A stretch of 64,000 nucleotides of DNA from NCBI RefSeq assembly GCF_016903815.1, contig NZ_CP069973.1; one strand, given 5' to 3'. Position 1 is the stretch's first letter. Every line of letters begins with the position of its first letter. The DNA is from Escherichia coli. GTDB lineage: Bacteria; Pseudomonadota; Gammaproteobacteria; Enterobacterales; Enterobacteriaceae. Of the stretch, positions 52,881-55,252 are shown piece after piece. The translations under genes and the position numbers were made by a program. Below the pieces are notes generated by a model. It was not told the origin of the DNA, made no database searches, and saw nothing but the letters and a program-made list of their open reading frames with translations.

Positions 52881-53641
52881 TTAAGTTAAACTTCGGCGGT
52901 CAGAAACGATGGCAACCAGAGAAACCGCCTTCTGTGCCTGTTCCAGCACTTCGCTGTAGGGCGCTCTGGAATCAATCTCAAGAATTTTTGTGCCGTTATA
53001 GCCAATCTTCGACATGACACCGATTTTGTCCTGCAGCTCGGCATAGTCATGGTCAGGCTTGCGGGAGATGGCAGTCTCAATATCAATGCCCAGGCGAATA
53101 ATTAATTCCGGGCGATATTGCGCCATTTGTTGGTATAAACGCCGTTCGCGCTGCGCCAGAAACATGCTGATTTTCCCGGTCGCACGTTCGACGCCAATCC
53201 CCGGTCCATCATAATAAAAGCCCGAAATTTCAGCCTGCGGGAAGCGATCGCTGACCACCAGAACGCCACTTTGCGCCAGTCGCTGAACCTTGCGTAGATT
53301 CGCCATTCTTCGCAGCGAGAAGCAGTACATAATCACCGCCGCGCCCATAGCGCCGGAGATTTGGTTTTCATGCTTTGGGTTTTCGAGGATTTGGCCGCCA
53401 GTCGCCGTTCCAGCCAGACGCCAACCAACGGCAATCGTTTGATTTTGTCGCCGTCTTCGCCGGAGAGCAGCCCCAGATAGCGCCGCTCGGTTTGCCAGTG
53501 TTGTTGCAGCGATTTCACCAGGTCGGTGGTCAGTGTGGATTTACCGGTGCCATCACACCCGACCACCGCAATCAGCCCCGGAATGTAGTTGGGCTGCGGC
53601 GCGGTTGTACTATTAACAGTTTGAGTTTGTAGTGCATCCAT
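52881..53641 (-). pseudogene. yghR: yghR-like P-loop protein, apparently disrupted by a frameshift
   Basis: Two overlapping ORFs in different frames (53333..53641 with P-loop VVGCDGTGKSTLT; 52881..53348) together align collinearly with the paralogous YghS; frame switch at about 53365-53385 near short A/T runs. Confidence 0.6.
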
Positions 53642-53672
53642 TCGTTAAATCATCCCCTATCCATTTTGGTGA

Positions 53673-54386
53673 TCAGGAAAGCGCGGCGTGAATTGCGCGT
53701 TGTGACGCTTGCAGAATTTCATCGGCGGGGTGTCGCCCATCCAGTTCAAGGATCTTTGCGCCATTGAATGTCAGTTGCGGCGTAACGGCGATTTTTTCCT
53801 GTAACGCTGCCAGTTGGTGGTCAGGTTTACGCGCAAACGCGGTTTGTTCATCAATGCCAAGACGAATCAACAATACGGGCAAATAAGATGCCATCCATTG
53901 GTACAGCTTCAGCTCGCGCTGCCTTAACATTTTTATCCAACCGTTACCGCCCGTGGTTTTTGCCAATTGCGGGCCATCAAAGCGAAACCCCGGCACTTCA
54001 ACCTGCGGGTAGCGGTCGGTGATGAGCAGAAAGCCTTGCTGGCTTTTACACAACATTTTGCGAAACTTGTACGCCCGCCAGCAGGAAAGCAGATAGATAA
54101 CCAGTGCAGTAATATTGCCAGGCGGTGTTGAGGGCTTTTCGTGCACATGTGCCGCTTTACTTCGCAGATAACGCCCAAAAGGTGCGCCAATAACAGGGAG
54201 CTGTGAAATCCATTCGCCAATTCGCCCGGACGATTGCCCGAGATAAATGTGTTCTGTTGGCATTCTTGCTGCCAGTTCATTTACCAGGCTTGCCGTGAGG
54301 GTCGATTTACCTGAACCATCACATCCTACAATGGCAATAACACGCACTGGCGTGGAATTAATTATTGACATATTACGTTGATTCAC
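53673..54386 (-). CDS. yghS: P-loop NTPase of unknown function (YghS)
   Basis: 237 aa ORF; Walker A IVGCDGSGKSTLT; paralogous to yghR and yghT. Confidence 0.85.
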   Translation of the reverse strand: MNQRNMSIINSTPVRVIAIVGCDGSGKSTLTASLVNELAARMPTEHIYLGQSSGRIGEWISQLPVIGAPFGRYLRSKAAHVHEKPSTPPGNITALVIYLLSCWRAYKFRKMLCKSQQGFLLITDRYPQVEVPGFRFDGPQLAKTTGGNGWIKMLRQRELKLYQWMASYLPVLLIRLGIDEQTAFARKPDHQLAALQEKIAVTPQLTFNGAKILELDGRHPADEILQASQRAIHAALS

Positions 54387-54559
54387 GAAAAACCCGGCAG
54401 TAAATAATGTATTGAATATTACGTGGTCCGTGCTCAGAATATCCGTTCAACCTTATTGTGACAATGGTTAATTGTGACATTGACCTGAATTACGCTTTCA
54501 TAAAAACATATTAACCAAATAAATATTTTTAATGGATATTTAAATTAAAGGATATATTC

Positions 54560-55252
54560 ATGCAGTCAATAACACCTCCATTAATTGCCGTTATTGGTAG
54601 CGATGGTTCAGGCAAGTCAACGGTGTGTGAACATCTTATTACCGTTGTCGAAAAATATGGTGCTGCCGAAAGAGTTCATTTAGGAAAACAGGCCGGAAAT
54701 GTCGGTCGTGCAGTGACAAAATTACCGTTGATGGGAAAATCCTTACATAAAACAATTGAACGAAATCAGGTGAAAACAGCAAAAAAATTGCCTGGACCAG
54801 TTCCGGCGCTGGTAATTACAGCGTTTGTCGCCCGTCGCTTACTGCGCTTTCGTCATATGCTTGCCTGTCGTCGTCGCGGGTTAATTGTTCTAACCGACCG
54901 TTATCCTCAGGACCAAATTCCTGGCGCTTACGATGGTACGGTGTTCCCACCTAACGTTGAAGGTGGTCGTTTTGTCTCATGGCTGGCAAGCCAGGAACGT
55001 AAAGCGTTTCACTGGATGGCGAGCCATAAGCCTGATCTGGTCATCAAACTCAATGTTGACCTTGAAGTTGCCTGTGCACGTAAACCCGACCATAAACGGG
55101 AATCGCTGGCGAGGAAGATTGCCATAACGCCACAGTTAACCTTTGGTGGTGCACAACTGGTTGATATCGATGCCAATCAGCCACTGGAACAGGTGTTGGT
55201 TGATGCAGAAAAAGCGATTACGGATTTTATGACCGCGCGTGGTTATCACTAG
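54560..55252 (+). CDS. yghT: P-loop NTPase of unknown function (YghT)
   Basis: 230 aa ORF; Walker [13 protein letters not shown]; divergent from yghS. Confidence 0.85.

Follow-up and report, generated by a model that had tools for sequence, protein, structure and literature searches.

Dihydroceramide synthesis of the rhodobacterial type has been described in Escherichia coli BL21, where ECD_02850-02854 correspond to the five genes yghO/aca, aasR, epi, acpR and spt, and Spt, AcpR and AasR of E. coli were found active (PMC9386255). The Caulobacter scheme comprises CpgABC, a flippase and LptC2F2G2, with the LptF2/G2 pair proposed to transport phosphosphingolipids (PMC11324152), and the anionic sphingolipids of this organism influence polymyxin sensitivity, detergent resistance, virulence and lipid A dispensability (PMC11324152, PMC9393093). 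Here we analysed a stretch of 64,000 nucleotides (the window) from E. coli contig NZ_CP069973.1 and focused on yghR, yghS and yghT (together yghRST) at 52881-55252. An initial annotation, made from the sequence alone, had described them as three P-loop paralogues beside a lipid locus and had suggested that they could be lipid or head-group kinases. We found that this lipid locus is the published rhodobacterial dihydroceramide pathway, and its five-gene cluster is complete and adjacent in the window according to the RefSeq annotation of strain 222 (NZ_CP020516.1), which served as reference and shows 100% identity to window 52500-55600.

We propose, with moderate confidence, that the three proteins YghR, YghS and YghT are cytoplasmic phosphotransferases that depend on ATP, have the fold of thymidylate kinase (TMPK) and are not redundant with one another, and that they form the head-group module of a proteobacterial sphingolipid pathway. 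This gives a specific and testable function to long-standing y-genes. As spt was found in 4134 of 5426 complete E. coli genomes, about three quarters of them carry a working-looking ceramide pathway, for which published work ends at the five dihydroceramide genes; the literature found on this cluster does not discuss the genes downstream of spt or yghRST. The kinase family and the partner set would be new, and the pathway type is known. Considering the effects in Caulobacter, a comparable lipid would have consequences for antibiotic susceptibility and for the biology of the envelope in E. coli, Serratia, Citrobacter, Hafnia and others.

Sequence, fold and orthologous groups of YghRST

The genes yghR (52881..53641, minus strand, delimited by alignment with K-12), yghS (53673..54386, minus strand, in tandem upstream of yghR) and yghT (54560..55252, plus strand, divergent from yghS) are located as the initial annotation described, and yghS and yghT are intact open reading frames (ORFs). 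The paralogy of the three was confirmed: BLASTP alignments over about 217-220 residues revealed 45% identity between YghR and YghS (E 1e-64), 36% between YghS and YghT (E 4e-54) and 34% between YghR and YghT (E 5e-48), YghT being the most divergent. Judged by these comparisons, the relationship is far above chance. The Walker A pattern was borne out, for example as VVGCDGTGKST in YghR and IVGCDGSGKST in YghS, and so were the common blocks DR(Y/F)PQ and (A/S)RKPDH.

The alignment along the full length holds for the gene family but not for the yghR product encoded in the window, of which the frame is split. Compared with K-12, yghR contains a 2-bp insertion at gene positions 298-299 (window about 53343-53344) and therefore is not a single reading frame; it is divided into a 102-residue P-loop fragment (53333-53641) and a 155-residue C-terminal ORF (52881-53348), and RefSeq labels it a frameshifted pseudogene in strain 222. 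The pathway in the window strain is probably defective, since yghR is frameshifted. This allele is rare, as an insertion-bearing 71-mer was matched at 99% identity or more in 8 of 4622 E. coli genomes. The yghRST region itself was matched in 4784 of the 5426 complete genomes.

The predicted structure of YghS was built from a 58-sequence alignment (predicted local distance difference test score, pLDDT, 91.6; predicted template modelling score, pTM, 0.87), and nearly all of its top 50 structural matches in Foldseek were TMPKs. A search of Protein Data Bank (PDB) sequences with YghT alone gave weak matches to TMPK and adenylate kinase (E at least 0.09), so the 58-sequence family profile was required; it matched TMPK at E 6e-11 and was aligned with it at the P-loop, the helix arginine, the DRY motif and the lid arginine. 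The yghRST family thus has a TMPK-type alpha/beta P-loop kinase fold; its P-loop GxxGxGK(S/T) includes an acidic residue, a DR(Y/H/F) motif is present as well as a basic lid, and GCDGSGKST, DRYPQ and RKPDH are invariant or nearly so across the 58 sequences. Fold recognition, which had been suggested as a check, came out in favour of a kinase through both structure search and profile. No relationship of YghRST to ABC, PPK2, DAGK or LpxK proteins was found in Pfam, NCBIfam or the structural matches; specifically, no DAGK-family match of Pfam or NCBIfam (the catalytic domain with the GGDG motif) was obtained, the fold being that of TMPK. A role as anti-phage defence protein was rejected, because PADLOC gave P-loop-level noise only.

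A neighbour-joining tree of 115 homologues, including two distant outgroups, separated YghR-, YghS- and YghT-like proteins (R, S and T) into clades of 45/45, 38/38 and 30/32 purity, respectively. The P-loop G.DG.GK[ST] is kept in 45/45 R, 37/38 S and 32/32 T, the DR[YFH]P motif in 43/45, 38/38 and 32/32, and RKPxH in 41/45, 38/38 and 31/32. On this tree, R, S and T each form an ancient orthogroup conserved in its own right. All three motifs are retained in each clade, and none of the three appears to be a dead paralogue. A tblastn comparison of the window's proteins with the loci showed S and R in tandem and T divergent from them in nearly all cases, an arrangement shared by alpha-, beta- and gammaproteobacteria and Myxococcales. 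There are also natural fusions, S-R in P0121 and T-R/S in P0122, P0123 and P0029, which argues that R, S and T cooperate physically or sequentially. Some Lysobacterales and Myxococcales loci (L054, L058, L060 and L068) contain two YghT-like copies, four kinases in all, and in L058 two PAP2 genes are located between these copies.

Linkage to ceramide genes and other conserved neighbours

One genome per GTDB species was scanned, which gave 80 loci from Enterobacterales, Xanthomonadales, Carnimonas, several betaproteobacteria, sphingomonads, Myxococcales and others. Neighbours were counted within 10 kb, and only in those loci whose flanks both reach 8 kb or more (35 Enterobacterales and 22 from other orders). 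The genes spt, acpR, cerR (epi) and aasR were all found in 35/35 Enterobacterales loci, and in 11, 10, 11 and 9 of the 22 other loci, respectively, so the co-occurrence with lipid genes that the initial annotation had named as a check was borne out, spt lying near yghRST in every enterobacterial locus and in half of the rest. The flippase gene yghQ was counted in 33/35 and 16/22 loci, the gene of a 274-residue CHAD-fold protein in 33/35 and 12/22, and a YtfJ-family gene in 33/35 and 0/22. The flanking genes pitB (6/35), gss (2/35) and glcC (1/35) were all absent from the 22 other loci; as they are not conserved neighbours, the linkage is specific to the lipid genes and does not reflect general synteny. 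In sphingomonads (L059 and L077), yghS, yghR, yghT, yghQ and the gene of the 274-residue protein form a single co-directional block. Two non-enteric loci, L019 (a metagenome-assembled genome labelled Pseudomonas sp.) and L037 (Martelella alba), contain clusters at enterobacterial-level identity, about 70% for YghR, YghS and YghT, which suggests horizontal transfer or mis-binning/contamination.

The 274-residue protein (50662..51486, minus strand) is a "hypothetical protein" in the annotation and gave no Pfam or NCBIfam match, yet its predicted structure is confidently the CHAD helical fold. The CHAD family is known for polyphosphate binding. Pfam CHAD was matched by 7 of 31 orthologues, of which only that of L067 passed the cut-off (26.4 vs 25.6 bits); nothing was found with the profile among PDB sequences, and hhalign against E. 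coli YgiF gave a probability of 0.4%. The residues R60, R88, K92, H93, R95, H105, H193, R196 and H237 are invariant, a set that is compatible with binding of inorganic polyphosphate. In L087, a fused T-R/S kinase has as its neighbours a MOP flippase and this CHAD-fold protein (hhalign E 8e-60). Judged from gene neighbourhoods, yghRST form a conserved module with the MOP flippase and the CHAD-fold protein. The association with flippases extends to more distant relatives of about 500 residues, some of which are encoded immediately behind a MOP flippase in Wzx/Wzy loci, while in others a flippase or a GT4 glycosyltransferase is part of the same polypeptide. The CHAD-fold gene is tandemly duplicated in Luteibacter (L047, 17312-18976; L052, 17312-19068), and Carnimonas nigrificans, with the full cluster in L045, has a second locus (L046, 10001-14770) in which only a yghR-like and a CHAD-fold gene were seen. 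A literature search joining CHAD domains to sphingolipid terms returned top-ranked papers that make no mention of CHAD domains.

Unbiased clustering of all ORFs of the 38 non-enteric loci revealed as frequent neighbours an Asp/Arg-hydroxylase-family protein and a MOP flippase (18 loci each), the CHAD-fold protein (15), PAP2 proteins (14 and 7), Spt (12), DUF2147 (11) and a PEMT-family methyltransferase (8). Representatives from L050 were placed with NCBIfam, where all matches were below cut-off: the hydroxylase was nearest to the acyl 2-hydroxylases OlsC/LpxO, the PAP2 proteins to LpxE and undecaprenyl-diphosphatase, and the methyltransferase to LmtA, the lipid A 1-phosphate O-methyltransferase (TIGR04571, 5.9e-34). 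By these nearest families, the non-enteric neighbours are putative enzymes for lipid-bound phosphate and acyl chains.

Proposed function and rival explanations

The suggestion of lipid or head-group kinases is supported by the TMPK fold and by the co-occurrence with lipid genes. The kinase fold, the retained catalytic motifs, the three ancient orthogroups and the gene linkage were computed here; from them we infer that the acceptor is a sphingolipid, how many phosphorylations occur and in which order, and what the CHAD-fold protein does, in the following way. Dihydroceramide would be made by YghO, AasR, CerR, AcpR and Spt, and its synthesis by E. coli B proteins was shown in the literature (PMC9386255). 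Each kinase would then phosphorylate a ceramide hydroxyl and/or a phosphate already installed, which would give a strongly anionic mono- to oligophospho-ceramide. On the cytoplasmic side, the CHAD-fold protein may bind either this head group, rich in phosphate, or polyphosphate serving as donor; the MOP flippase YghQ would flip the lipid, which the LptF2/LptG2 pair would then extract in the direction of the outer membrane. Outside the enterics, the phosphate might afterwards be trimmed or capped by PAP2 phosphatases and the LmtA-like phosphate O-methyltransferase. We found no glycosyltransferase, cytidine diphosphate (CDP)-alcohol transferase or DAGK-type kinase in the enteric cluster through RefSeq, Pfam and NCBIfam, so yghRST are its only candidate head-group enzymes. 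The genes yghR, yghS and yghT, the CHAD-fold gene, yghQ and the LptF2/G2 genes are therefore assigned here to a candidate head-group and export module.

The chemistry of TMPK is the phosphorylation of a phosphomonoester. Because of this chemistry and the retained TMPK arginines, we might speculate that at least one step creates a pyrophosphate. A tentative and rather unlikely elaboration is that the kinases act in series, one phosphorylating the ceramide hydroxyl and the others extending it to a pyro-, tri- or longer phosphate chain, that the CHAD-fold protein holds this lipid-anchored oligophosphate and that the MOP flippase exports it, the product being a surface ceramide oligo- or polyphosphate. 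MOP flippases export pyrophosphate-linked lipids, classically undecaprenyl-pyrophosphate-linked substrates. Our literature search found no paper on ceramide pyro-, di-, tri- or polyphosphate.

Several points weigh against the assignment of yghRST to a sphingolipid head group. The searched literature contains no biochemical or lipidomic datum on yghRST, and the ceramide kinase already known from bacteria is a member of another family, DAGK/LCB5 (PMC10331486). The CHAD assignment draws mainly on a predicted structure and marginal Pfam matches. yghR is naturally inactivated in the window strain, and K-12, which lacks the ceramide genes, retains yghRST; these two facts are evidence only that loss is tolerated. 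Further, spt is absent within 10 kb in 11 of the 22 non-enteric full-flank loci, and distant relatives of yghRST occur in Wzx/Wzy polysaccharide loci, so that the whole family may act on undecaprenyl-linked or sugar substrates.

These last two points also speak for a rival explanation that we consider improbable, in which the module of yghRST, CHAD-fold protein and MOP flippase modifies another envelope lipid, such as lipid A/lipopolysaccharide core or an undecaprenyl-phosphate-linked intermediate, and the adjacency of spt comes from a general clustering of outer-membrane lipid genes. The classical substrates of MOP flippases agree with it, as does the resemblance of the neighbours to the lipid A and ornithine-lipid modifiers LmtA, LpxE and LpxO/OlsC. 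However, the linkage to the five ceramide genes is complete in Enterobacterales (35/35) while the other flanks vary, and independent recurrences are seen in Xanthomonadales, Carnimonas and several betaproteobacteria; the enteric cluster contains neither a glycosyltransferase nor an initiating phosphoglycosyl transferase. The S-R-T-Q-CHAD operon is present in sphingomonads (L059 and L077), a group classically known to produce sphingolipids. In one Wzx/Wzy polysaccharide locus (L083, 1012-12048), a distant relative of about 500 residues consists of an unknown N-terminal domain and a YghRST-like kinase; a MOP flippase precedes it, another small P-loop protein follows it, and an ATP-sulfurylase and a sulfotransferase are nearby.

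Equally improbable in our view is a soluble substrate: the kinases would phosphorylate a precursor of the head group (a small alcohol, an acid or an activating nucleotide) that a separate transferase joins to ceramide. Small-molecule and nucleotide kinases have this fold, the Caulobacter head group is thought to be built via nucleoside diphosphate-activated intermediates (PMC11324152), and some distant relatives appear to have, at the N-terminus, a region resembling nucleotidyltransferases (P0224 weakly matches NTP_transf_5, and the N-terminal sequence of P0162/P0168 is similar). Against this, we found no candidate transferase in the enteric cluster, a single precursor would call for three conserved paralogues, and the neighbours act on lipid-bound phosphate, being LmtA-like, LpxE-like and undecaprenyl-diphosphatase-like.

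A role in polyphosphate handling, with polyphosphate as donor as in PPK2, or with a polyphosphate chain made for the CHAD-fold protein to bind, is still less probable. The CHAD-fold protein, from a family of polyphosphate binders, is a core partner, and PPK2 proteins are also TMPK-like P-loop kinases; PPK2 gave no family match and was not among the best structural matches of the yghRST family.

The RefSeq product name "dTMP kinase" (deoxythymidine monophosphate kinase) seems to over-annotate YghS and YghT, and ordinary dTMP or nucleotide kinases are a very improbable explanation, even with TMPK as the nearest fold. At the family level the name is unsupported because the scores are under the curated cut-offs: PF02223 (Thymidylate_kin, cut-off 27 bits) gave 26.9 for YghR, 19.2 for YghS and 21.1 for YghT, and TIGR00041 (cut-off 83.25 bits) gave 32.3, 24.3 and 25.8. 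In TMPK, the aromatic residue before the helix arginine stacks on and binds thymine. In the profile alignment to PfTMPK this residue, the Phe of "LLFSANRW", is replaced by Leu in the family consensus "lalslrRl", so the yghRST family lacks the thymine-binding aromatic. Relative to TMPK, the YghS model has about 60 additional residues, a helical insert that follows strand 2. A true dTMP kinase was rejected on these cut-offs, the lost thymine-stacking residue and the operon context of three paralogues co-conserved with lipid genes.

An ATPase partner of the LptF2/LptG2 permeases or of the flippase, to which the absence of an LptB-like gene from the island (RefSeq annotation) and the size of about 230-250 residues, near that of ABC nucleotide-binding domains, would point, was likewise rejected as very unlikely, since the fold is TMPK with kinases as top structural matches, ABC_tran matches residues 15-40 (the P-loop) only, at 17.9 bits vs a cut-off of 25, and co-occurrence is weak, LptF-like genes being near yghRST in 3/22 and LptG-like genes in 2/22 non-enteric loci.

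Locus layout and comparison with known systems

The gene order (RefSeq, strain 222) begins with glcC and continues with the ceramide genes: yghO, encoding an N-acyltransferase (aca, bacterial ceramide synthase; 42275..43417, minus strand; RefSeq and the figure 9 legend of PMC9386255), aasR, a specialised acyl-ACP synthetase annotated as fatty acyl-AMP ligase (43827..45515, plus; RefSeq, PMC9386255), epi/cerR, an NAD-dependent epimerase-family reductase of the ceramide pathway (45512..46426, plus; Pfam Epimerase 5.3e-23, PMC9386255), acpR, the specialised acyl carrier protein of Spt (46458..46706, plus; RefSeq, PMC9386255), and spt, serine palmitoyltransferase (46706..47878, plus; RefSeq; BL21 ECD_02854 is characterised in PMC9386255). 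Then follow, all on the minus strand, a second LptG-type permease gene (LptG2-like, 47913..48992; TIGR04408, 308.7 bits) and a second LptF-type permease gene (LptF2-like, 48989..50059; TIGR04407, 317.8 bits), a pair (47913-50059) that passes the NCBIfam equivalog cut-offs, the YtfJ-family gene (50090..50653; Pfam YtfJ_HI0045 1.7e-59), the CHAD-fold gene and yghQ (51486..52835), which is directly downstream of yghR and encodes a full-length MOP-family flippase of 449 residues (Pfam Polysacc_synt 7.8e-11). After yghR, yghS and yghT, the order ends with pitB and gss.

In K-12, an IS5 element is in place of aasR, cerR, acpR, spt, the lptG/F-like genes, the ytfJ-like gene, the CHAD-fold gene and the 3' part of yghQ, as seen in the K-12 derivative CJ236 (L002, 12142-14336, corresponding to about 43800-52835 of the window). 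Through this replacement, K-12 keeps yghRST without the rest of the island, and its yghQ copy is truncated. yghQ variants are reported in chlorhexidine-adapted K-12, a background with yghQ already truncated.

The divergent intergenic region between yghS and yghT (54387..54559) is very AT-rich and presumably contains both promoters. A peak of FlhDC in systematic evolution of ligands by exponential enrichment (SELEX) is located between the two genes (PMC9962212), and yghS is up 3.1-fold under SlyA overexpression (PMC5797941). The AT-richness, the FlhDC peak and the SlyA response would fit a normally silenced island. In the searched literature no functional study of yghR, yghS or yghT was found, the mentions being screen tables, the SlyA list and the FlhDC SELEX peak. 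A promoter and terminator scan of the region gave sites no more numerous than in shuffled sequence, and only the yghT-pitB hairpin stood out. This hairpin (55263-55291), a 12-bp stem followed by a T-rich tail, is located between the convergent yghT and pitB and is likely the pitB terminator because it was scored on the minus strand.

Compared with described systems, yghRST share their fold with Tmk (PF02223/TIGR00041) and the deoxynucleoside kinases, but score below every curated cut-off; Tmk is one housekeeping gene, whereas yghRST are three co-conserved paralogues in a lipid/flippase operon. PPK2 polyphosphate kinases are TMPK-like P-loop proteins associated with polyphosphate, and yghRST gave no PPK2 match. 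The 274-residue protein has marginal sequence similarity to CHAD proteins (PF05235; Ricinus CHAD 6qv5, PptA 6rn5 and E. coli YgiF), from which it differs in that it is not CYTH-fused and is encoded with lipid genes instead of polyphosphate-metabolism genes. The closest functional analogy is LpxK, the lipid A 4'-kinase. This P-loop kinase acts on the cytoplasmic side, where it phosphorylates the precursor of an outer-membrane lipid that is flipped afterwards; LpxK belongs to a different P-loop family.

The ceramide kinase of Caulobacter, CpgB (CC_1160/CCNA_01218), is a cytoplasmic kinase at the equivalent pathway position, and its cluster is like that of E. coli, with spt, acpR, cerR, aasR, cerS, a flippase and a second LptF/G pair (PMC11324152, PMC10331486). 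The Caulobacter head-group genes cpgA, cpgC and CC_1152/1153 have no counterpart in the E. coli cluster. The route proposed here for E. coli would parallel the Caulobacter scheme by analogy. CpgB is of the DAGK/LCB5 type with a GGDG motif (PMC10331486), whereas YghRST are P-loop proteins of the TMPK fold, and could be considered a possible new lipid-kinase family apart from the DAGK-type bacterial ceramide kinase.

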